Positions 2,564-30,451 of a stretch of 30,451 nt of DNA are shown piece after piece (within the stretch, counting starts at the first letter, position 1; the number at the start of each line of letters is the position of its first letter). The stretch comes from a virus. Lineage: Duplodnaviria; Heunggongvirae; Uroviricota; Caudoviricetes. Where the stretch lies: positions 1 through 30,451 of IMG/VR virus record IMGVR_UViG_2728369554_000010. One strand, 5' to 3'. The notes below the pieces were generated by a model. The model did not search any database, was not told the DNA's origin, and was given only the letters and a program-made list of their open reading frames with translations. Position numbers and translations under genes: made by a program.

Positions 2564-3189
2564 CAGGAAAACTCCGGTGCCGGGAGTCCCATGTTTTTAT
2601 GCTCGGCAATAATCATTGCTTTCACATTTCCGTCAGACAGCGTATTGCCCAGGCTGGTTGTTTTGTCTGGTGCGGTGCTTCGTTTGATGGTGTTGATGGC
2701 ATCACGAGCGATAAACTCTCCCTGCGCAATTGCCCGACCAAAACGAACCAGTTTATTGCGATAGGCGATTCTTTGCTCTAGGCTATCCGGATACATTTTT
2801 GCCAGGTTATCCGGATCCATTACAATTTTGACAGCCTCTTTAACACGGGTGTGCTGCTTAATTGACTCTTCGCATATTTTTATGATTTTTGCGGTTTTGT
2901 CAGTAAACAGTGCTCCCTTGCCTCTGTTCTGTCGTTCTTCAATGACTGCATTGAGCGCGGCGCGCATGTTGTCATTCAGCCCGTTGATATATTCAATAGC
3001 TTCTTCGAGAGGCAGAAACACCTGACCATCATGATGCTCAAATGTAAGCATTGAAACCACTCTGGCGTGTGTCGCGGATTCAATAACTGTTGTTGGTAGT
3101 ATCGTGCTTTTAGCTGGCACCGGAGCCAGTGATGCTGTCAGAGCTGTAGTAATAGCAGCAATGGCAGCAGACTTTGATTTTCGTTTCAT
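2563..3189 (-). CDS. Hypothetical signal-peptide (secreted/periplasmic) protein, translationally coupled to the YafO-like gene
   Basis: ORF 2563-3201; preferred start MKRKSKS at about 3189 with GGAG 6-7 nt upstream; N-terminus has basic n-region, Ala/Thr-rich h-region and PVPA-K cleavage-like site; no resemblance to YafN/Phd antitoxins. Confidence 0.5.
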   Translation of the reverse strand: MKRKSKSAAIAAITTALTASLAPVPAKSTILPTTVIESATHARVVSMLTFEHHDGQVFLPLEEAIEYINGLNDNMRAALNAVIEERQNRGKGALFTDKTAKIIKICEESIKQHTRVKEAVKIVMDPDNLAKMYPDSLEQRIAYRNKLVRFGRAIAQGEFIARDAINTIKRSTAPDKTTSLGNTLSDGNVKAMIIAEHKNMGLPAPEFS

Positions 3190-3261
3190 AATGCACTCCA
3201 CAGGTTGATGTGTTCAGCATATCGCAAATAGCAGCTTGTATAAAGAAACGCCACATCAGCA

Positions 3262-3523
3262 GCGATCGTTTTACGCGCTTTTCTTCTTGTTGCGATCCTT
3301 TTTTTCAGTTTTATTTTGGAGCTTAATTTTGTGCAGGCCGCGCCGTGTCTGCCTTCTTTGTTTGATGGCTGTTTGATGCGATCCTTTCGTGATCGTTTTT
3401 TTGTCTCGCGTAAAGTATGAAAACTCTTTTAATATCATGCGGTTTTATTGCTCCGGCCATTTGTGCGATCGTAAAAACCACTTTGAAAACTGCAAAAAAT
3501 TTCAAAGCGTGAAATTTCAGATC
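3262..3523. promoter_or_regulatory. GATC-rich intergenic region with repeated GCGATC(G/C)TTTT-like motifs
   Basis: Six GATC sites in about 260 bp (near 3264, 3294, 3380, 3391, 3467, 3520), several inside a reiterated GCGATC-T-run motif; lies upstream of the secreted-protein/YafO-like operon. Confidence 0.35.
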
Positions 3524-3628
3524 TTCGCTTTTCCCTCAGTTGCTGCGCGGGCTGGCGGTCATTTTTGCACGGCAGAAAACTGAAAAACTGTTTCGACACG
3601 AAACCCGCGGGTTGGAGGGGGTAGCGCG

Positions 3629-3671
3629 GTTTACGTCACCTCACGCTTTACGTCACACCGTTTACGCGGTG
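3629..3671. repeat. Three direct repeats of TTTACG(T/C) motif (iteron-like) near the prophage boundary
   Basis: GTTTACGTCAC, CTTTACGTCAC, CGTTTACGCGG at 15-17 bp spacing; adjacent GTTTCG-ACA-CGAAAC and AACCCGCGGGTT palindromes at about 3586-3612. Confidence 0.4.
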
Positions 3672-3789
3672 TGCGCATACAGCGCCAGAATGGCACGCAG
3701 AACGCATTAATCAGGTGGCAGATATGAAAACGCACGACCGGAGCCGTGCGTTGCGTGATGGGCGTTTATGGGGGTGGTATGCCCGGTGA

Positions 3790-9912: not shown

Positions 9913-11613
9913 TTAAACACTCGCCACGTTATACCAGGTGCCGTTAATCAGTTTCTGAAGCGGTCGGTAATACACGCCGCCGATGTTATCTGCCGAATTA
10001 CTTCCGGTTTCCTGCACATTAATACCAGATAATCCATGGCCTGAAGGTGAGCGAAATGTCCAGGATATCTGGTTACCTCCCGGGTTGTAATACATTTCGG
10101 AACCATAACGCACATCCTGCACGCCGCCTGTTTTGGTCTGGTAACGGGCATCAAAGTTTCCGTAGTCTGACGGTGTTACCCGCCCGGTAACGTTTACAGG
10201 TTTATTACTCTGAATGCTGCCATTCTGAAAACGCAACACATGCACGCTATTGGCATAAACATCCAGCAGGCCATCACCATTCTGTTTCAGGCCGGTATCG
10301 TTATCCCCGAAAGCAATTGAGTTTCCGCCCAGCGCATTCTGAACGCCGATACCCAACGCACCGTTAACTTTCGAACCACCGCCAACAGATACTGCGTGTG
10401 GCATGGAAACTTCACCCGTCCGCAAATTAATAGTGAACGGACGCAGGGGGCCAATATCGCCATTCTCGCCCTGACCTTCACTGGTAGGGATAAGGTGCAG
10501 GCACTCTTCCGAACGACGAAAAATCAGGCCAAAAGCTTCGTTGAAAATCCTCAGTGCATTAACACCACGGATTTTCAGCTCCCCGGTCATGGTGTCGCCG
10601 TCGCGCTCAACAGCGTCTTTTGCTTTATCCATTGCGGCTTTTACTGCCTTTGATGTGGCGGCGCGGTCTTCTGCGTCGCTGTCGGTGGAGTTGCTGTACT
10701 GCGCAAAGCCTTTCTCCTTCAGTGTTGCGTCCGGATGATGGCGGGATTTTTCGTGCTCTGCCAGTGCATTGCTTTGTTCTTCGTCTGGTGTCTCCGGGCG
10801 CAGGTCCTGTGGGCCGTCTCCTGTCATTTTTGCAAGTGGCGCGACAAAGTGTCGGAAGCCGTTACCGTCTGTATAAGACGCATGTTCCTGGCGGGCGCAG
10901 AACGTAAAAACGGTATTCCATTCGCCAGTAACAAATCCCTGCCAGCTTGCATCAATCCAGAGGGTATCCCCGACCGCAGCCGGCAGGCTGTAAGGTTCGC
11001 GCAGACTGACGCGCAGACCTCCCACATAACCCACGCCGGCGGCAACAGTAGCGGTACCGTCCTGATAGCTGACCTGAAAACCATCCCCCAGAAAAGCGGC
11101 TTCACCGTAGTGATCAAACGCCAGCAGCCGGCGGGCCTCATCCATTCCTGCAAGGCGTGCAGTGAAATCAATCTGCCAGACATCAGCGCTGACATCGATA
11201 TGCATTGCTGCGGCTGCGCCGTCAAACTCCATGGAAAATGTGCGGATCAGGTTGTTTCCCTGCACGCCGTTCGCTGTTTTAATTTTTTGCTGACGAGGTG
11301 TGTGTGCAATCATGCAGAGCACGCCGCTTTCTTCGTTCAGCAGACCGATCCAGTTGTATTCGAAGTCGCCGACTGTCGTGTCCAGAATGATGGAAAACGC
11401 GGTCGCGTTCGGCGACAGGAGGCCGTACTGGGTGACCGGCGCACGATACTGAATCATGGATTCATCAGGGAGTATCTCATCGCGGGGGATCTCTGCGGAT
11501 TCATCCTGTCCCGGAATATATGCAAAAACAAATGTATCCGGGCGCGCAGGTTTTCCACTGATGATTTGATTTGCGCACCAGTGTTCGTACTGTTCAGTAA
11601 TAATCGTGCTCAT
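9913..11613 (-). CDS. Tail fibre protein 1 (P2 gpH-like C-terminal region)
   Basis: 566 aa; HEKSRHHPDATLKEKGF, NALGGNSIAFGDNDTGLKQNGDGLLDVYANS, NFDARY and C-terminal INGTWYNVASV closely parallel P2 gpH as I recall it. Confidence 0.85.
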   Translation of the reverse strand: MSTIITEQYEHWCANQIISGKPARPDTFVFAYIPGQDESAEIPRDEILPDESMIQYRAPVTQYGLLSPNATAFSIILDTTVGDFEYNWIGLLNEESGVLCMIAHTPRQQKIKTANGVQGNNLIRTFSMEFDGAAAAMHIDVSADVWQIDFTARLAGMDEARRLLAFDHYGEAAFLGDGFQVSYQDGTATVAAGVGYVGGLRVSLREPYSLPAAVGDTLWIDASWQGFVTGEWNTVFTFCARQEHASYTDGNGFRHFVAPLAKMTGDGPQDLRPETPDEEQSNALAEHEKSRHHPDATLKEKGFAQYSNSTDSDAEDRAATSKAVKAAMDKAKDAVERDGDTMTGELKIRGVNALRIFNEAFGLIFRRSEECLHLIPTSEGQGENGDIGPLRPFTINLRTGEVSMPHAVSVGGGSKVNGALGIGVQNALGGNSIAFGDNDTGLKQNGDGLLDVYANSVHVLRFQNGSIQSNKPVNVTGRVTPSDYGNFDARYQTKTGGVQDVRYGSEMYYNPGGNQISWTFRSPSGHGLSGINVQETGSNSADNIGGVYYRPLQKLINGTWYNVASV

Positions 11614-16336: not shown

Positions 16337-16400
16337 TTCCTTTTAAAGTCAAGAATAAGAGGGCTTAATAAGCCTGCAGGAAGGCTTATTAAGCGTAAAA

Positions 16401-22313: not shown

Positions 22314-23204
22314 TTACACCAGGTTAAAAGTTTCGCCACCGGCCGGATTGTTGCCCGGCAGCTTCGTGGCGTCCTTGCTGAGTTCAGCAAATGCGGTTTC
22401 CATACTGGTAACCTTCTCCGCGATGGCGTTCACTGTGGAGAACAGCTTTTCGCCCTGCTCGGTGGTCAGCGTGAAGGTTTTGTCGTCCTTGTTGTTCTGT
22501 TCTGCGTTGTCCTGCCCCTGATCGCCGGTGCTGCCTTCCGGCTTGTTATCACCGGTATCTTTCGGGGCATCCTTCGCGCTGAACTGCGTGACGTTTTCTT
22601 CCAGTTTGTCCAGGCGTTCGCCGGTTTTGTTGATAGCGTCCATCAACTGGCCGAACTGTTTTTCGTTCATATCGTTTTCCTGTTTGTTGCGTCCCACGGA
22701 GAAAAGGCCGGAAAAGAAACTGCGTTTGGCCTGCTCGTCGTCAGACTGCAGCGTGAAATTCAGTTCTTCTGCATTCCCCATGTGAATGGAATCTCCCTGC
22801 GAAAATTGCAGGCGGGTGGTGTTGATGCTGGCCGGTGTGTCAGTCACAGCGATACCGGATACAAAGAATTTGCCTGTTCCCAGGTAGTTTTCCTTTACCT
22901 CTATGGAGGTGAAAAGTTTTTGTCCAGCCTCGTTGGCTTCGGTCAGAAAGCGGTTGGGTATCAGGCGGGCTTTCAACTGCACTTTATCACCGACTTTTTC
23001 CGCCTTCAGTGCATCAACAAGACCATAGTTATTGGTGAAAGCACGCCAGCCGGCGCTGGCATGAAACGGCCAGAGCATGGCGGTGTGTTCGTCCGGGTTA
23101 TAAACCTCGGCGGCATCCGTCAGCCACTTTGGATCAATTTCCCGACCGTCGATGGTGGGGCCTGAAGTGGCTACGACCACCCAGTCTGTTTTCAGTTTCG
23201 ACAT
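22314..23204 (-). CDS. O: Capsid scaffolding protein, gpO-like
   Basis: 296 aa; N-terminus GPTIDGREIDPKWLTDAAEVYNP and acidic C-terminal half resemble P2 gpO; first gene of the leftward head operon. Confidence 0.8.
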   Translation of the reverse strand: MSKLKTDWVVVATSGPTIDGREIDPKWLTDAAEVYNPDEHTAMLWPFHASAGWRAFTNNYGLVDALKAEKVGDKVQLKARLIPNRFLTEANEAGQKLFTSIEVKENYLGTGKFFVSGIAVTDTPASINTTRLQFSQGDSIHMGNAEELNFTLQSDDEQAKRSFFSGLFSVGRNKQENDMNEKQFGQLMDAINKTGERLDKLEENVTQFSAKDAPKDTGDNKPEGSTGDQGQDNAEQNNKDDKTFTLTTEQGEKLFSTVNAIAEKVTSMETAFAELSKDATKLPGNNPAGGETFNLV

Positions 23205-23287
23205 CTGAATTAACCCGCTGATAAAAATTAAACTGGCGTTATTTAACGGAGAAATAAAAATGTCGTCATCTGATTAATTTCCGGTAC

Positions 23288-23313
23288 TTTCGGATATGTG
23301 TATATATCCGAAA
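23288..23313. promoter_or_regulatory. Perfect 10-bp-arm palindrome TTTCGGATAT-N6-ATATCCGAAA in the O/P divergent promoter region
   Basis: Read directly from sequence; centred about 85-100 bp from both the O and P start codons in an AT-rich 194-bp intergenic region. Confidence 0.45.
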
Positions 23314-23398
23314 AATACCGAAAAGCGATATTCGTTTTTAAAAAAGCCTTTGCTGAAAATGCATAAATTAAAATTGCATCAGCAGGTGAGGTTTATTT

Positions 23399-25186
23399 AT
23401 GGCGTATTCTGATGAGGTGATTGCTGCTGCAAAATCGCTCTATCTGAAAAGACACACACCAAAAGAAATACAAAAGAAGCTCGGACTGAACAGCCCGCGA
23501 ATTGTTTATTACTGGGCGACAAAGTTTGAGTGGTACACACAGCTTAATGCTGAAGGCGTGGAGGATGTTATCGCTCGTCGTCTCGCTGTACTGGCGGAGC
23601 GTGATCATAAAACGCCGGAAGAGCACGATGAACTTGATCGCCTGATTGGTCATCACGTCAAACTGATGTCGGTCAGGAACAAGCACACGGAACGCATGGC
23701 CGAGATTGAACGAATGGGAGCGGATATTCCCCAGTCTGGTCGTTATGGAAAAGAAGAACGCGGAGAAAAAGGTGCAGGTAAGAAAGAGCGCCCCCGCAAA
23801 GCTAATGACGTTTCCGGACTGACTGCTGAAAGTTTTGAGCCGTTTACGAAAAAGTTGTTTGCTTATCAGTTGCATCTGCGTGAAAACAAATTCCGCCGTG
23901 TACGCAACCTGCTTAAATCCCGCCAGATTGGGGCGACGTATTACTTCGCGTTTGAGGCATTTGAAGATGCAGTATTAACCGGCGACACACAGATATTTTT
24001 ATCGGCATCAAAACGTCAGGCCGAAGTGTTCCGTACTTATATTGTAAAAATTGCACAAACAGAGTTTGGCATTCCCATTAAAGGCAATCCGGTTAAGTTA
24101 AGTAATCTGGCTGAACTGTATTTTCTGGCGACCAACAGTAACACAGCGCAGTCAAACAGCGGCCACCTGTATATTGATGAATACCTGTGGATCCCCGGTT
24201 TTCGCCGTCTCAATGAAGTGGCATCAGGGATGGCCACCCATAAACACTGGCGCATTACCTATTTCTCCACGCCGTCATCCAAAACACACCAGGGTTACCC
24301 GTTCTGGTCTGGCGATGAATGGCGCAAAGGCGATCCGAAACGAAAAGGGGTTGAGTTTCCGTCCTTTGATGAGCTGCGCGATGGTGGGCGTGAATGTCCG
24401 GATGGTCAGTGGCGCTATGTGGTTACGCTGGAAGATGCCATTGCCGGCGGCTTTAACCTTGCTGACATCAACGAGCTGCGCGAGCGATACAACGAAACAG
24501 CGTTCAATATGCTGTTTATGTGTGTGTTTGTGGATGACAAAGAGAGCGTCTTTAAATTCGATGATCTTGTGCGTTGTGGTGTTGATGTCAGTACGTGGGA
24601 GGATTTTCACCCGGAAGAGCCCATGCCATTTGGTAACCGTGAAGTGTGGGGCGGCTTTGACCCTGCGCGCTCCGGCGATAACGCCACATTTGTTGTGCTG
24701 GCACCGCCGCTGGTTGCGGCAGAACGATTCCGCGTGCTGGAAAAACACCACTGGCGCAGCATGTCATTCCAGTTTATGGCAGAGCGTATCCGCAGCATTA
24801 AGGCGCGCTATAACATGACATTTATCGGCATTGACGTCACCGGTCTTGGCTACGGTGTCTTTGAGCTGGTTCAGGGATTTGCCCGCCGTGAAACAGTGGC
24901 CATTCATTACAGCGTGGAATCCAAAAACCGCCTGGTGATGAAGATGCTGGATCTGATTTACGCCAACCGTATTGAGTGGGATGAAGAAGCCACGGATATT
25001 CCGGCATCGTTCCTGGCCATTCGTCAGGAATCCACCAACAGCGGCAATAAAGTCACTTTCACCGCCGAACGTAGCGAAGAAACCGGGCACGCTGACATCT
25101 TCTTTGCCATAGCTCATGCCGCAAGTAATGAACCCCTGAACTATAAGCACAAGCGCAAATCAACATGGATCCTGTCAGATGAGTAA
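23399..25186 (+). CDS. P: Terminase large (ATPase) subunit, gpP-like
   Basis: 595 aa; GGTGAGG SD; motifs KSRQIGATYYFAFEAF and IDEYLWIPGF typical of P2-type terminase; overlaps portal start by 8 nt. Confidence 0.85.
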   Translation: MAYSDEVIAAAKSLYLKRHTPKEIQKKLGLNSPRIVYYWATKFEWYTQLNAEGVEDVIARRLAVLAERDHKTPEEHDELDRLIGHHVKLMSVRNKHTERMAEIERMGADIPQSGRYGKEERGEKGAGKKERPRKANDVSGLTAESFEPFTKKLFAYQLHLRENKFRRVRNLLKSRQIGATYYFAFEAFEDAVLTGDTQIFLSASKRQAEVFRTYIVKIAQTEFGIPIKGNPVKLSNLAELYFLATNSNTAQSNSGHLYIDEYLWIPGFRRLNEVASGMATHKHWRITYFSTPSSKTHQGYPFWSGDEWRKGDPKRKGVEFPSFDELRDGGRECPDGQWRYVVTLEDAIAGGFNLADINELRERYNETAFNMLFMCVFVDDKESVFKFDDLVRCGVDVSTWEDFHPEEPMPFGNREVWGGFDPARSGDNATFVVLAPPLVAAERFRVLEKHHWRSMSFQFMAERIRSIKARYNMTFIGIDVTGLGYGVFELVQGFARRETVAIHYSVESKNRLVMKMLDLIYANRIEWDEEATDIPASFLAIRQESTNSGNKVTFTAERSEETGHADIFFAIAHAASNEPLNYKHKRKSTWILSDE

Positions 25187-26213
25187 AAAGAAAAAATACC
25201 CCGTGTTACACGATGGCGTGGCAAAAAAAACAGCCAGCAAAATGACTTTTATTGAATTTGGTGACCCGGAACCGGTCGCAGCATGGGGCTGTTATTACGG
25301 CTCGCTCTGGGATGGCTATAACGGCTGGTACACACCGCCCATTGAGCGCATGGATCTCGCCATGTTGTCCAATATCGCACCGTATCACGGCGCGGTATTG
25401 CGTGCGCGCGTCAATATGATCATGCAGGGTTTTCGGGGTGGTGGTGGTATGACACACGCCGCCATGGCGGCAGCAGTAACCAATCTGCTGATATTCGGGG
25501 ATATGGGGTTGCTTAAAGTGCGCAATGGCTTCGGTCGAGTGGTGCGCCTGCATACGTTACCTTCTCTGTACCTGCGGCGTAACAACGAGGGTGGCACGGT
25601 GATTGTGCAGGCGGCACTGGAAGATCTCGTTTACCCGCCAGGCGAAGTAGTGTTCGTGGCCATTTATGACCCGCAACAGCAGGTTTACGGTGTCCCGGAT
25701 TATATTCACGGGATGGAATCTGCCATGCTGAATGTGGATGCCACCCGCTTTCGCCGCAAGTATTACAAGAACGGCGCACATCTTGGTTATATCCTGTATT
25801 CCACTGACCCGGACATGGATCCCGAGCTCGAGGCGGAATTCCGTAAAAAGATAGAGGCGTCAAAAGGGGCGGGCAATTTTAAATCCATGTTTATCAATAT
25901 ACCTGGCGGAGACAAAGAAGGCGTTAAGGTGATCCCTATCGGAGATTCAGGTACAAAAGATGAGTTCCTGAATATAAAAACTATCAGTGCCCAGGATCAG
26001 CTCGTTGCGCACCGTTTTCCACCCGGGCTTGCCGGCATCATTCCCGCAAATACGGCCGGGCTTGGTGACCCACTGAAATCCCGCGAGGCATATTACAGGG
26101 ATGAGGTTATCCCGATGCGCCGCCTGATTATGGAGGGGATCAACAGCGACCCGGATATCAGACGACTGGGGGAGGTGAAATTTATTCTTGATTTTGATGA
26201 ACCCATGGAGTGA
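25179..26213 (+). CDS. Q: Portal protein, gpQ-like
   Basis: 344 aa starting MSKKKK; FRRKYYKNGAHLGYILY and GAGNFKSMFINIPGG parallel P2 gpQ as I recall it. Confidence 0.85.
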   Translation: MSKKKKYPVLHDGVAKKTASKMTFIEFGDPEPVAAWGCYYGSLWDGYNGWYTPPIERMDLAMLSNIAPYHGAVLRARVNMIMQGFRGGGGMTHAAMAAAVTNLLIFGDMGLLKVRNGFGRVVRLHTLPSLYLRRNNEGGTVIVQAALEDLVYPPGEVVFVAIYDPQQQVYGVPDYIHGMESAMLNVDATRFRRKYYKNGAHLGYILYSTDPDMDPELEAEFRKKIEASKGAGNFKSMFINIPGGDKEGVKVIPIGDSGTKDEFLNIKTISAQDQLVAHRFPPGLAGIIPANTAGLGDPLKSREAYYRDEVIPMRRLIMEGINSDPDIRRLGEVKFILDFDEPME

Positions 26214-26278: not shown

Positions 26279-26536
26279 ATGCGCAGACAGAAAGCGCGAT
26301 GTCATTGCTGCGGTGCACATGCAGTGATTGAGAAAACAGCCTGGAAAACCGATCAGTTTGCTGATGTGTATTACCGTTGCACCCGTCTCGAGTGCGGACA
26401 TACCTGGGTGATGAATCTGACCTACTCGCACACACTGGTGCCCAGCGGGCTGGAGAATGGTGTGTTAAAGCTGTTGATTGAGCGGATGCGTCCGGAAGAA
26501 AAACAAATGGCTCTGGAGTTGTTGCAGGCCGGATAG
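26279..26536 (+). CDS. ogr: Ogr/Delta-family zinc-finger late-gene transcriptional activator
   Basis: ORF 26210-26536; preferred start MRRQKARCHCCG at about 26279 with GGAGG 6 nt upstream; C-x2-C...C-x4-C zinc finger (RCHCCGAH...YRCTRLECGHTW); about 85 aa. Confidence 0.7.
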   Translation: MRRQKARCHCCGAHAVIEKTAWKTDQFADVYYRCTRLECGHTWVMNLTYSHTLVPSGLENGVLKLLIERMRPEEKQMALELLQAG

Positions 26537-26555: not shown

Positions 26556-26607
26556 CAACCCGGAACGGGCGCACAAAGAATTTGCGCACCCGTTCCGGGT
26601 TTTCTTA
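26556..26607. terminator. Long hairpin (AACCCGGAACGGG...CCCGTTCCGGGTT) with T-run between convergent ogr and rrf2-like genes
   Basis: About 13-bp near-perfect stem with nested inner stem, followed by TTTTCTTATT on the plus strand. Confidence 0.5.
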
Positions 26608-26964
26608 TTCAATGGCAGACAACTGATAATTTGTGTCTTCCTGCAGGCTGGTTAAAGAAATATTATCCAGTGCAGCCAGAATAACGTGCTGTGTATATAA
26701 TCCGGAACATTTCATTGCCCGGACAATATCACCAACACTGTAATTTTCTTTTGTCGGGATATATCCACCACCCGGGCCGCGTGTGGCTTTTACCAGGCTA
26801 CTTTCCCGTAAATATCTGAATATTTGCTCCAGATATGACAGTGAAACGGTTTCTTTGCTTAATTGCCGGAGCGAGATTGGCTTTCCGGTGTACTGTTTCA
26901 CAAATTTAATCATTACCATAACTGCAACTGATGCACGCTGGCTTCCGGAATTATCTTTCATCAT
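26605..26964 (-). CDS. Rrf2-family winged-helix transcriptional regulator (short form, no Fe-S cysteine cluster)
   Basis: ORF 26605-27030; preferred start MMKDNS at about 26964 with GGAAG upstream; VSLSYLEQIFRYLRESSLVKATRGPGGGY matches the Rrf2/IscR recognition-helix signature; about 119 aa. Confidence 0.6.
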   Translation of the reverse strand: MMKDNSGSQRASVAVMVMIKFVKQYTGKPISLRQLSKETVSLSYLEQIFRYLRESSLVKATRGPGGGYIPTKENYSVGDIVRAMKCSGLYTQHVILAALDNISLTSLQEDTNYQLSAIE

Positions 26965-26975
26965 GATTACTTCCA

Positions 26976-27263
26976 TTAATGGCATAAATTGATGGAGCGG
27001 GTCAGTGAATAAAGAGGCAATACATTCCATCCCTTAGAGCGCCAGCTGTCTGCAACATCTTTACTTCTTGTTATCGCCGGTATTCCAATAGGATTATTTG
27101 CGTGCATCCATGCCACTGGCTCTGCTTCCAGTGATGCAAGTGCGATTTCCAGTGCGATTAACATATTGTGATCGTCTTCATCAAGACCGAACGGGATGTC
27201 TTCGCGCCACGATTTAAACTCTGTGATTTTACGTTGTAACCATTCTTTGGTAATGGTGGACAT
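26976..27263 (-). CDS. Hypothetical protein (95 aa) in the par operon
   Basis: ORF 26976-27281; preferred start MSTITKEWLQ at about 27263 with AGGAG 5 nt upstream; 14 nt downstream of the parR-like stop. Confidence 0.4.
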   Translation of the reverse strand: MSTITKEWLQRKITEFKSWREDIPFGLDEDDHNMLIALEIALASLEAEPVAWMHANNPIGIPAITRSKDVADSWRSKGWNVLPLYSLTRSINLCH

Positions 27264-27277
27264 AGTTACTCCTGTTT

Positions 27278-27592
27278 TCACTTCGGGAAAAACGCCTGAA
27301 TATTCTTTTTCACCTGCTGCATATGGGGGGCGCTGTCTGCTGCTGGTTGCGCCGGTTTTTCAGGCTGTACTGGTAGCGGTGGCATCCGTATTTCGTCTTC
27401 TGACCATTCTGCCAGCGAATACGCCAACGCGGGGGTGCGTTTTATAAGAGCCAGTCCGGCCAGAAAAGCCGCGCGTTGTGCGCGGCTGCGTTCGGAGGCT
27501 GGCAGGCTGTCGAGGTAACTGCACGCCTCCCGTTCGCTCTTGACGACGGCGGGCTTCAGATAGAAACTTATCCGTCTGGTTGGTGTCGTCAT
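27278..27592 (-). CDS. parR: ParR-like centromere-binding partition protein
   Basis: ORF 27278-27721; preferred start MTTPTRR at about 27592 with AGGAG inside the parM 3' end; ISFYLKPAVVKSEREACSYLDSLPASERSRAQRAAFLAGLALIKRTP parallels plasmid R1 ParR as I recall it. Confidence 0.6.
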   Translation of the reverse strand: MTTPTRRISFYLKPAVVKSEREACSYLDSLPASERSRAQRAAFLAGLALIKRTPALAYSLAEWSEDEIRMPPLPVQPEKPAQPAADSAPHMQQVKKNIQAFFPK

Positions 27593-27596
27593 TGAT

Positions 27597-28556
27597 TTAC
27601 TCCTTGTCCATTGCGTACAGCCCATTAACCAGAGCAAACTGTGGCACCCCGTCCGCGATGAAAGTCGCATTAACTCCGCAGGCTTCGCGGATAGCGGGTG
27701 CCACAATCTCTGCCCCTCCACCTACAACCATCACCCGCCCGTAACCCGAAAAACCCGCCAGCGCGCGGATCACGCGTTGTTTCAGTGTTTCTTCCTTTTC
27801 ACGAATAACAGCCATCAGGCTGGCGTAATGTGCGTTATTGTGGATGTGCTGGCGCAGCCAGGCTTCATCGTGGCGATGTTCGATAATGGTATTGGCGATG
27901 TGGTGACTGGTGCGCATACCGTTAGTGGCCATTACCGACAGTACGGCATCGGCCATCAGGGAAACGCCTACGTGTGGATCGCAAAACACCTGGCTGATAC
28001 CTGCCAGTTGCCCCTGAACCTTTGCCACATCCAGCGTGGTTCCGCCCAAATCCACAATCAGCAGGGATTCAAACGGACTCATGTCAGCCAGTGCTTTAAA
28101 GCCAGCCGGAATGGATTCAGGCATAACCCGCACGTTACGGATAGTGAATGCCTCGCCGTTCTGGTACTCCACCGGGCGCATAACGTTCGCTTTTTTGCGG
28201 TTGATGTTGGCCATGTCCGGCTGTGCGTTTGTGTCGAAATACTCGCTCAGTGGCAGGGTGACAACCACATCCACCTCCTGTGGCGTGATGCCTGATTTGA
28301 CCAGCGCATGATGAATGGCAATGACATTCACATCGCTGTACTGGTATTGCGTGTCGGTCGTCTGGACAAAGCGATCGCTGACCGGATCAAAACCATAGCG
28401 CACGCCATCAAGCATGTAGTTCGCGGGCTGCGTGCCACCGAACGGCGCAGACCATTCTGACTTGAAGCTGTTCGGGCTGATGGCGTTGCGGCGTTCGCCG
28501 TTCTCAGTCCATGCCAGCTTGATGTTGGTGGATCCGTCGTCGATACAAATTTTCAT
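27597..28556 (-). CDS. parM: ParM/StbA-family actin-like plasmid segregation ATPase
   Basis: 319 aa; MKICIDDGSTNIKLAW...ISPNSFKSEW...YQYSDVNVIAIHHAL...LLIVDLGGTTLD...VMVVGGGAE parallels plasmid R1 ParM along its length (from memory). Confidence 0.8.
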   Translation of the reverse strand: MKICIDDGSTNIKLAWTENGERRNAISPNSFKSEWSAPFGGTQPANYMLDGVRYGFDPVSDRFVQTTDTQYQYSDVNVIAIHHALVKSGITPQEVDVVVTLPLSEYFDTNAQPDMANINRKKANVMRPVEYQNGEAFTIRNVRVMPESIPAGFKALADMSPFESLLIVDLGGTTLDVAKVQGQLAGISQVFCDPHVGVSLMADAVLSVMATNGMRTSHHIANTIIEHRHDEAWLRQHIHNNAHYASLMAVIREKEETLKQRVIRALAGFSGYGRVMVVGGGAEIVAPAIREACGVNATFIADGVPQFALVNGLYAMDKE

Positions 28557-28700: not shown

Positions 28701-30451
28701 TTCCACTGGTCAGGCCACCCCGCAGCAGGTCTGCTTTGCGGCGGGCGCGTTCAGTTGTTTCACTGATTCTCTGTGCGTGCTCTGCGTCACGGATGGCGCG
28801 CAGCATGTCAGAAAGCACGGTAACGGGGGTTTTCATGGTGTTCTGGTCCTGCTGAAGTGTGGATGCCAGGCGTGCGGCGGCTTCGGGGTCTGATGCCCCC
28901 AGCTGTTCCAGATAGCTGGCGACCGGGTTATGGCGGATCCCCGTGCTGCTTACGCCGTGATTACGGCTCAGGCGCTGCCAGAGCTGCGTGATTCGGCTGT
29001 CCGGGCTGGTATCCGGTTTGCGTACAATTTCAAATCCCTGCGGTGCAATGATGCTGCCGTCAACGTACAGGCTGCCGCCCCGTAACAGGTGCTGCATCTG
29101 CTGTTCACCGATATGCAGGCCGAGAGATTCAGCAGACTCCCGCCATTCTTTAGCGAGTAACTCGTGGTTATCAGGCAAAGGCTGTGGCTGTTTGCGGCTC
29201 TGTGTCCAGTTCTGCATTTCATCACTGCTGTTTTTTGCCTGTTTGTCACGCAGCGAACGCATCAGCGCCCGGCGTTCGTGCCGTTTCAGTGAGCGCATCC
29301 ATTCATTCACGTCAACGCTGTCAGGAAGCTGCGGCCACGGTGCTGGCCGTTCTTCCGGCTGTTCTGTCCCGTTGTTGTCCGTTTCCTGTACACGGGGACA
29401 GTTATTGCCACGAGTCCAAGGGGCGGCAGGGCCGCCCTGAAGGTCAAAACCATTTTCGCGGGCGCTGTCTTCCGTTTCCGGTTTACGTCTTACCAGCTTC
29501 CAGTTATCCGGATGCGTGCACACACGGGAGGATTCCCCGATGAGTGGCGACCAGATCCCGTAAATCTGTACGCTCTGTTCGCCGTAATCGTTCAGCTCAT
29601 CTGCGAGGTCGTAGGCGGTGCGAATCAGGTAGTCTTTGCGTGGAACAAGAACGCCGCCCTGTTTCTCTATGTAGGTGGCAAAACATCCGGCATCAGCGGC
29701 AGCAAGAACCGCATCCATTGCGTCATCCTTCAGCCGTTGCGGGCCTTCCGGGTTGCGTGCCATCTGGCTGGCAAGGCGGCGCAGTTCACGCCACACCTGA
29801 CGGGAGGGGATGNNNNNNNNNNNNNNNNNNNNNNNNNNNNNNNNNNNNNNNNNNGTGAAGGCGCGCCCAGCCGATAGCGCGCTCCACGCTCTCGGCCATT
29901 GATTTTCCGGTTTCATGGTCAACGCGTGGCTTGCCCGTTTTTGGGTCGATACCATCCACGGCGCGGCTGCTCAGGTTTTTTCCGATGTAGGTGGCGATGT
30001 AGCTGGTTGGCGTGCCTTTTGAGCCGTCGACGTACTCCGCTTTAAAACGCGGAGTTATGTCATCGCCCAGCTCGTGGCGGTCTTCCTGAATGGCAATATC
30101 GCGGGTGATGGCCACGATGCTGTCGATTTCTTCCGGATGAGCAAAGACCATCATATGCCAGTGCACAGTGCCGTCATGGTGAGGCTCCACCGTGCGGATG
30201 CCATACCAACGAAGGCCGTCGCGGTTCAGTTTTTTGCGGACCGCTGCAAAAAACGTGTTAACCAGGTAATCGCTGGAGTCGCGCATGGTGGCCCCGTTCC
30301 ATTTGGGATTCGGATGACCGTTCTCTGTTGTGGCATGGTATTTTGACGGGCAGGTGACAGTCAGAAACACCGCTCTGTCGCCACGGGCTTCGGCCAGAAG
30401 TTCCAGCCCCTTCATGGTGGCCATCATTTCTGCCTTACGGTGAACCGGGTT
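28633..30451 (-). CDS. A: Replication initiator gpA-like (rolling-circle, HUH-type), 5'-truncated by window edge and split by a gap
   Basis: Two ORF-track pieces (28633-29955, 29786-30427) in different frames across the N run; reading frame stays open to position 30451; contains GTVHWHMMVFA HUH-like motif. Confidence 0.65.
29813..29854. other. Assembly gap (42 N) inside gene A
   Basis: Run of N in the sequence; flanking A fragments are in different frames, so the true gap length is unknown. Confidence 0.95.

Follow-up and report, generated by a model that had tools for sequence, protein, structure and literature searches.

The window, by which we mean the whole 30,451-nt stretch of DNA analyzed here (IMG/VR record IMGVR_UViG_2728369554_000010, assigned to the Caudoviricetes), carries between its divergent late genes O and P an array of four short inverted half-sites. 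This array is almost certainly a positioned cis-regulatory element of both late promoters, whichever protein binds to it. On the basis of sequence comparisons, we assign a probability of about 75% to the reading that the array serves as the activator site through which the phage-encoded Ogr-like protein acts on the divergent promoters pO and pP. The first-pass annotation had tentatively interpreted a perfect palindrome at this location as the site of a diverged Ogr-like activator, or of another regulator, that controls both late operons. Computational support for this interpretation comes from the P2-like position of the element, the retention of its half-sites around a freely varying spacer, the fixed distances to the predicted −10 hexamers, and the presence of only one regulator that is shared by the phages concerned. 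The evidence also refines the earlier view by supporting the array of four half-sites, beyond the 26-bp palindrome alone, as the functional unit. Most likely, the element is the HP1/K139-subfamily counterpart of the P2-type Ogr site, and therefore represents a known form of control in a new sequence version.

The O/P palindrome and its surrounding array

The window matches, at 100% identity, a prophage that adjoins pheL/pheA in the chromosome of E. coli 7_33_46A; among 5426 complete E. coli genomes, 43 contain this prophage. The genes for its head, tail, and replication functions belong to the HP1/K139/ESSI-2 type and not to the P2 type, and its early region is different again. Prophages of E. 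coli and Yersinia that pair a P2-type switch with HP1-like late genes are known (PMC3448106). A leftward late operon of roughly 20 kb is headed by gene O (22314–23204, minus strand), which encodes the capsid scaffold/protease (PF05929, E = 1.7e-40, and the RefSeq annotation of the identical E. coli prophage) and is followed on its side by the capsid gene N and the small terminase gene M. The rightward late operon P-Q (23399–26213, plus strand) is composed of gene P for the terminase large subunit (23399–25186, plus strand; Pfam terminase domains and annotation) and gene Q for the portal protein (25179–26213, plus strand; Pfam and annotation). Directly 3′ of Q and in the same direction lies an Ogr/Delta zinc-finger gene (26279–26536, plus strand), which matches phrog_603, annotated as a transcriptional regulator. 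The first-pass annotation had thus correctly assumed divergent O (minus strand) and P (plus strand) genes with an Ogr/Delta gene near them.

The palindrome TTTCGGATAT-GTGTAT-ATATCCGAAA had been placed at positions 23288–23313, and both its sequence and its coordinates proved to be right, with arms that are 100% complementary. The weaker symmetry proposed to surround it is also real, and is formed by TTCCGGTA (23279–23286) and TACCGAA (23316–23322). Taken together, positions 23279–23324 read TTCCGGTAC-TTTCGGATAT-GTGTAT-ATATCCGAAA-AATACCGAAAA, wherein the palindrome makes up the center of a 44-bp array whose four half-sites are arranged as TTCCG-N5-TTCGG-N14-CCGAA-N5-CCGAA (23279–23322). The left arm (23288–23297) contains the inner half-site TTCGGATA (23289–23296), the right arm (23304–23313) contains the inner half-site TATCCGAA (23305–23312), and the variable 6-bp spacer GTGTAT between them (23298–23303) places the dyad center between positions 23300 and 23301. 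Nearest to pP is the right outer half-site TACCGAAA (23316–23323), whose perfect CCGAA (23318–23322) is located 10 bp from the inner CCGAA. Its mirror image nearest to pO, the left outer half-site TTCCGgta (23279–23286), is an imperfect version of TTCGG that carries one mismatch (TTCCG, 23279–23283). The dyad center is 96 nt from the start codon of O and 98 nt from that of P. The GC content of the O/P intergenic region is 32%, versus 52% for the window, and the central 14 bp of the palindrome (ATATGTGTATATAT) exhibit perfect purine–pyrimidine alternation in the E. coli lineage.

When judged against random sequence alone, the palindrome is suggestive but modest. Inverted repeats that are perfect over arms of 10 nt or more, with loops of no more than 12 nt, number five in the window, versus 0.46 expected, and at least one such repeat occurs in 1.4% of random 194-mers of intergenic composition (32% GC). 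What places the palindrome beyond chance is that its core is conserved between O and P across dozens of diverged relatives. The 24-bp core TTCGG[A/T]TA-N8-TA[A/T]CCGAA is present as a single copy in the window even when three mismatches are allowed. The first-pass annotation had proposed that the same palindrome be sought elsewhere, and a search of the window for it, for half-site pairs, and for TTCGG-N14-CCGAA revealed that only the O/P site stands out; the other matches reside inside genes and occur at chance level. An array that is present once agrees with the HP1-type layout of two divergent late units. At least three of the five repeats, perfect hairpins with arms of 10 to 13 nt (16363–16394, 2103–2128, and 2135–2162), are terminator-like. 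One of these separates the lysis genes from the tail-chaperone gene, and the other two are located between convergent genes near a YafO-like toxin gene.

The classical Ogr site is missing from this region, as had been noted before, since TGT-N12-ACA has no exact match within positions 23205–23398. The six exact matches in the whole window correspond to chance level, and none of them is upstream of a late gene. The sole match with one mismatch in the O/P region (23297–23314) relies on bases of the spacer that relatives do not share. The O/P site therefore deviates from the TGT-N12-ACA consensus and has CGG-N14-CCG as its conserved core.

Searches with the O/P region by megablast and blastn yielded no match among deposited phages, and the only match among plasmids was to 112 nt of the O gene. 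Relatives were therefore collected through the similarity of their P proteins. The 20 arm positions show no change among approximately 30 close relatives, in which six versions of the spacer occur (GTGTAT, GCGTAT, GCGCAT, GTGCAT, GCACAT, and ACGCAT). One relative with 90% identity has CGGGCA as its spacer, and the spacers of distant relatives are unrelated. Nearly all of the enterobacterial relatives, down to a P identity of 55%, carry TTCGG-N14-CCGAA once per locus of ~10 kb, between O and P. These relatives include Edwardsiella (75% P identity), two relatives with 67 to 68% identity, and phages of the Yersinia massiliensis type (55%), whose half-site is TTCGGTTA. Among O/P intergenic regions that had been found by protein similarity, TATCCGAA is the most widely shared 8-mer (11 of 18). 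When 2.9 million viral contigs were scanned for exact matches to TTCGGATA-N8-TATCCGAA, 80 stretches were recovered, about 65 of which lie between homologues of O and P with 43 to 99% identity; the remaining ~14 approximate the number expected by chance for 16 specified bases. Phages vB_YenM_324 and ESSI-2 carry imperfect versions of the motif, with one half-site reading TAGCCGAA in the former and TTCCCGAA in the latter.

We then compared 21 non-redundant regions anchored on the dyad center, both for the anatomy of the element and for the promoter offsets described below. Their consensus, TTC.G-N5-TTCGGATA-N8-TATCCGAA-N5-CCGAA, contains two half-sites in each direction at 10-bp phasing. The outer half-sites are conserved at positions −22 to −18 and +17 to +21 from the center with an information content of more than 1 bit, and these positions belonged to no search pattern.

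Other perfect palindromes are present at the equivalent place upstream of P in distant clades of the P2 family. Examples include GCAATCGTAGAGAC-N1-5-GTCTCTACGATTGC, TTCTATAT-N5-ATATAGAA, and GTTTTTCTGTATT-CCGC-AATACAGAAAAAC, and the clades concerned are L038–L051, L081–L088, and L096 (Sphingomonas-type), a second clade that comprises L067, L092, and L098 (Aliivibrio fischeri ES114), and loci L068 and L073. Their placement suggests that these palindromes may be clade-specific activator sites.

Several features elsewhere in the window were also recorded. A run of 42 N (29813–29854) splits replication gene A into two ORFs, and this gene is intact in the identical E. coli record (2823 nt). Between ogr and gene A (26605–28556) are an Rrf2-family regulator gene, a small ORF, and a ParR/ParM (StbB/StbA) pair. 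The latter is a plasmid-partition pair, yet the prophage is integrated and all 44 E. coli copies are chromosomal. This Rrf2/ParR cassette varies among near-identical relatives, in which Rrf2 is often missing and ParR is swapped for a version with 60 to 66% identity. A noncoding stretch of ~590 bp located 3′ of the last tail gene (3202–3789) contains short repeats (TGCGATCC/GTTTT several times and TTTACGTCAC twice), and might include cos or packaging sites or the prophage end. No direct repeat of at least 12 nt was found to be shared between the int-proximal flank and the first 1600 nt of L099 (corresponding to the window up to ~3899), which include this tail-distal noncoding stretch.

Predicted late promoters and their distance from the array

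Every offset from the dyad center was scored for likeness to TATAAT, and this analysis revealed a sharp peak on each side at index 54–59. On the P side, 17 of the 21 regions have a −10-like hexamer at the offset observed in the window (at least four of six matches, including A2 and T6), versus zero to three regions at any other offset. On the O side, the mean TATAAT match is 3.45 at the peak versus ~1.5 at other offsets. The −10 hexamer predicted for pP in the window is GAAAAT (23355–23360, plus strand), which would place the start near position 23367 and is accompanied by no −35 match. The hexamer predicted for pO is TTAAAT (23241–23246, minus strand), located at the mirror-image offset and consistent with a start near position 23234. 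A −35-like sequence for pO, ATGACG (23264–23269, minus strand), resides 17 nt upstream of this hexamer and matches at four of six positions. With this fair −35 element, pO could be partly activator-independent. No sigma-70 consensus promoter was found in the O/P region.

The hexamers vary by lineage (GAAAAT, CATAAT, TACACT, TATCAT, TTAAAT, AATACT, and TATGCT), and on the O side relatives have hexamers of the TAnnnT type. Because the hexamers differ between lineages, the spacing itself is conserved and not just an inherited sequence. At the −35-like sequence of pO, a CA dinucleotide is conserved at positions −34/−33 from the center (1.45 and 1.72 bits), and an nTG(A/C) pattern recurs in relatives.

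A simple rule applies across the variants of the array: from the promoter-proximal CCGAA to the beginning of the hexamer, the distance stays at 32 nt. When measured from the proximal CCG of the window (23318–23320), the distance to the predicted GAAAAT hexamer is 34 nt. In two relatives that carry only the inner pair of half-sites (L158 and L159), the hexamers are 10 bp nearer to the center on both sides. In HP2, where the inner pair is 10 bp wider (N24), the hexamers CACAAT and AAAAAT are 5 bp further out. These shifts indicate that each promoter is placed relative to its own side of the array.

Leader lengths differ among the relatives. The distance from the pP −10 hexamer to the terminase start codon is only 6 to 10 nt in ESSI-2 (L181), vB_YenM_324 (L180), the K139-type locus L116, L023, and L079, and such a short gap implies, if the hexamers are correctly predicted, that P mRNA would be leaderless or nearly leaderless in those lineages. 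By contrast, 38 nt separate the −10 hexamer from the P ATG in the window, and this interval contains a Shine–Dalgarno sequence. In another group of relatives (L004, L005, L006, L007, L009, and L011), the pP leaders are 26 to 36 nt longer and carry tandem TTACGGAACG-like repeats, and the half-site array and the −10 position are unchanged.

Candidate binding proteins

The Ogr-like protein is 85 amino acids long, carries the motif CX2C-X22-CX4C, and matches PF04606 with a score of 48.3 bits, which exceeds the gathering cut-off of 26.3. Its residues C8, C11, C34, and C39 are invariant in an alignment that includes P2 Ogr, to which the protein is 19% identical. The subfamily is further characterized by an almost invariant segment, CGHTFVxNLTFSHTLSPS, and by a C-terminal helical extension. 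We found no solved structure for the Ogr_Delta family. An Ogr-like gene is located after Q in every motif-bearing relative for which enough sequence is available. The order P-Q-ogr is kept in all enterobacterial relatives as well as in K139, ESSI-2, vB_YenM_324, and HP2, and the gene position is also found in Salmonella SW3/SI7. Among the 45 prophage proteins, those with homologues in HP2, ESSI-2, and K139 are the late proteins, P, Q, A, Int, and the Ogr-like protein, such that the last of these is the only transcription regulator common to all motif-carrying phages. From this co-occurrence, which falls within one clade and is confounded by shared ancestry, and by analogy, we infer that the Ogr-like protein is the probable binder. 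A clade whose half-sites read GGTTA in place of GGATA has also changed in the conserved Ogr segment (NAVFSHSL). This covariation is a single event and provides a weak indication.

In the Yersinia-type loci L028 and L029, the usual array is replaced by a perfect palindrome with 21-nt arms, TTATAATAAATTCGGTTAAGT-N12-ACTTAACCGAATTTATTATAA. Their Ogr-like protein differs very little from its counterpart in L030, a locus with the N14 arrangement. If nearly identical proteins accept both N14 (L030) and N24 (L028), then binding by the dimer would need to be modular and not rigid.

A host transcription factor or nucleoid protein that is conserved across the Enterobacteriaceae, Vibrionaceae, and Pasteurellaceae might instead bind the array and set the activity of the late promoters. 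The near-constancy of the TTCGG...CCGAA core among phages of E. coli, Edwardsiella, Yersinia, Vibrio, and Haemophilus, whose Ogr-like proteins are only 32 to 50% identical, would be accounted for by such a factor. We nevertheless consider this explanation unlikely. The exact motif in viral contigs is almost confined to the O/P region of this phage family, with only ~14 of the 80 scan stretches located elsewhere, and this near restriction to one phage context disfavors a host protein. A constant half-site could also be explained by the near-invariant CGHTFVxNLTFSHTLSPS segment of the Ogr-like proteins, and the parallel change of half-site and segment in the GGTTA clade points weakly, as a single event, in the same direction. 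Furthermore, we know of no matching consensus among the regulators of gamma-proteobacteria, which also counts against a host factor. The HipB operator, TATCC-N8-GGATA, has its half-sites in the orientation opposite to that of the array, and the consensus sites for OxyR, GlpR, and other regulators known to us do not match it.

Even less probable is that the array is the operator of another phage regulator, such as an Rrf2, ParR, or MarR-like protein, an immunity repressor, or a Cox-like protein, that acts negatively on the late operons. The size of the palindrome is typical of repressor operators, and the Rrf2-family gene (26605–27030) is only 3.3 kb away. However, Rrf2 is absent from eight relatives that have an identical palindrome (L003, L006, L009, L011, L014, L017, L019, and L026) and from all distant relatives, and in more distant relatives ParR is lost or replaced and ParM was not found. 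No homologue of the Rrf2, ParR, ParM, MarR, HTH-repressor, or cox-position proteins is present in the motif-bearing phages HP2, ESSI-2, and K139. On the strength of their distribution among relatives, Rrf2, ParR/ParM, MarR, the HTH repressor, and the product of the cox-position ORF were rejected as binders. Moreover, the site does not overlap the predicted −35 and −10 elements but is located upstream of both.

The least probable explanation is that the palindrome has no dedicated binder and instead reflects two promoters arranged as mirror images, a cruciform or a flexible tract of alternating purines and pyrimidines, a role in packaging or replication, or chance. The perfect alternation of ATATGTGTATATAT in the E. 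coli lineage and the 1.4% frequency of perfect 10-nt palindromes in random AT-rich 194-mers count in favor of this view, but the arms are kept and the spacer varies freely, L027, K139, and ESSI-2 lose the alternating tract and keep the half-sites, the half-sites are phased at 10 bp with fixed distances to the −10 hexamers, and the repeat of HP2 resides in the middle of a linear record that has the integrase gene at one end and the last late gene at the other. The cos site is located at such genome ends, and the origin of P2-type phages resides within gene A.

Proposed mechanism and comparison with known systems

In the mechanism that we propose for the Ogr-like activator, the protein encoded at 26279–26536 would bind the half-sites as a dimer or tetramer. 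Bound around positions −47 and −58 with respect to each start, it would bring the host RNA polymerase to promoters with a −10 hexamer and a poor −35 element. Contact would probably occur via the alpha C-terminal domain of the polymerase, as for P2 Ogr, whose activation reportedly proceeds through this domain. Rightward transcription would yield P-Q, plus ogr by read-through, and leftward transcription would proceed from O through the tail genes. Within this scheme, we infer the Ogr-like identity of the binder, activation as opposed to repression, the starts near 23234 and 23367, and the stoichiometry. In HP1-type genomes, the genes from O through to the final tail gene are all oriented one way and P-Q the opposite way, and with this two-unit layout a single central array could control the whole late program, including ogr.

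A broader proposal, to which we extend credence and doubt in equal measure, is that Ogr proteins of the HP1/K139 type constitute a distinct specificity class. Its members would recognize half-sites of the sequence TTCGG(A/T)TA, assembled in modular fashion as two or four copies with an inner spacing of N14 or N24 and always 32 nt from the −10 hexamer. From a single array, two RNA polymerases would set out in opposite directions, and the whole late program would be run from one locus. If true, this class would be a sequence-orthogonal counterpart to the pair formed by P2 Ogr and TGT-N12-ACA, wherein the activator and its promoters are expected to lack cross-talk with P2 Ogr. Terminase would likewise be made from leaderless or nearly leaderless mRNA in the ESSI-2, vB_YenM_324, and K139-type lineages.

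Late control by Ogr-family zinc-finger activators is a textbook case. To our knowledge, however, its details have been established solely for the TGT-N12-ACA class (P2, 186, and P4). The HP1/K139/ESSI-2 half of the family includes prophages that are common in E. coli, Yersinia, Vibrio cholerae, and Haemophilus. For these, the gain is a testable cis-element and a promoter-spacing rule by which late promoters could be annotated across hundreds of prophages, and the rule also predicts which helper activators would be able to trans-activate satellites. The result extends a known mechanism and does not describe a new one. In the open-access literature, we found no paper that names the motif or defines sites for Ogr homologues of the HP1/K139 type, and no published binding, footprint, start-site, or expression results were found for the phage in the window or for its HP1/K139-type relatives.

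The characterized Ogr/Delta sites have the consensus TGT-N12-ACA (PMC3931495), with which the motif of the window has no bases in common. In the P2 record AF063097, the mapped starts of pP and pO are at 3016 and 3127, and a single feature at 3057–3087 is annotated as "activator binding site; pO, pP promoters". This site reads TGT-N12-cCA (3063–3080) and lies midway between the two starts, ~55 nt from each. The mapped starts imply GAAACT (3115–3120) and TAGCCT (complement of 3023–3028) as −10 hexamers, and the distance from the ACA/TGT triplet to the −10 hexamer is 34 nt on both sides. The window resembles P2 in having a single dyad-symmetric element midway between the divergent P-Q and O-N-M-L operons, a proximal triplet that precedes a weak −10 hexamer, predicted in the window, by 34 nt on each side, a −35 element that is poor at least at pP, and a phage-encoded Ogr-family protein with the CX2C-X22-CX4C motif. 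Given the same place in the gene map and the same 34-nt geometry, the array would occupy the place of the Ogr site with a different sequence. The half-site here is TTCGGATA, with CGG/CCG as its core, whereas that of P2 is TGT/ACA, and the dyad spacing is CGG-N14-CCG versus N12 in P2. Four half-sites are present at 10-bp phasing, with their center ~66 nt from the predicted starts versus 55 nt in P2. The window has one site per genome, whereas P2 has additional sites at pV and pF. Finally, the low identity of the activator to P2 Ogr (19%) is coupled with its C-terminal helical extension, and its gene follows Q, whereas ogr of P2 is next to att/int.

Variation of Ogr sites between clades has a precedent in the Ralstonia phages RSA1 and RSY1, for which the putative sites are TGTTGT-N13-ACAACA (PMC5694545). 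As in the window, these clade-variant sites are dyad-symmetric and reside upstream of late operons that lack sigma-70 promoters (PMC5694545). However, they are based on TGT/ACA and serve four late promoter regions, whereas the motif described here occurs once.

Closer counterparts are found in K139 and HP2. The O/P region of K139 (AF125163, orf16/orf17) contains the near-identical core TTTCGGATAT-AACCCC-ATATCCGAA with outer half-sites TTCCG and CCGAA, and its Ogr homologue Orf13, described as a "zinc-finger protein", is encoded 3′ of the portal gene, a position that has also been noted elsewhere (PMC8537503). K139 differs in that its depositors annotated the putative sigma-70 promoters P16 and P17, the former of which overlaps the palindrome, and in that only 7 nt separate the predicted −10 hexamer from the P start codon. 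The HP2 record has a repeat_region (NC_003315, 12555–12610) between orf16 (P) and orf17 (O) that, according to its depositors, "most likely contains promoters for late genes of HP2", with no binding protein named. This region holds a homologous element, TTTGGATATCTTCGGATATA-N14-TATATCCGAAGATATCCAAA, with the same GGATA half-sites at 10-bp phasing and with −10-like hexamers 32 nt beyond the outer half-site on both sides. It differs by its inner pair, TTCGG-N24-CCGAA, and by a fifth half-site within the loop. An unannotated ORF of the Ogr/Delta type (L183, NC_003315, 9299–9577, minus strand, 92 amino acids) is located between Q and terminator T14 of HP2, and another is present at the same position in HP1 (NC_001697, ~10447–10650). 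The position of these ORFs corresponds to that of ogr in the window and of orf13 in K139. The window thus displays the hallmark of the HP1/HP2/K139 type, namely inverted GGATA-type half-sites between P and O and an Ogr-like gene after Q.
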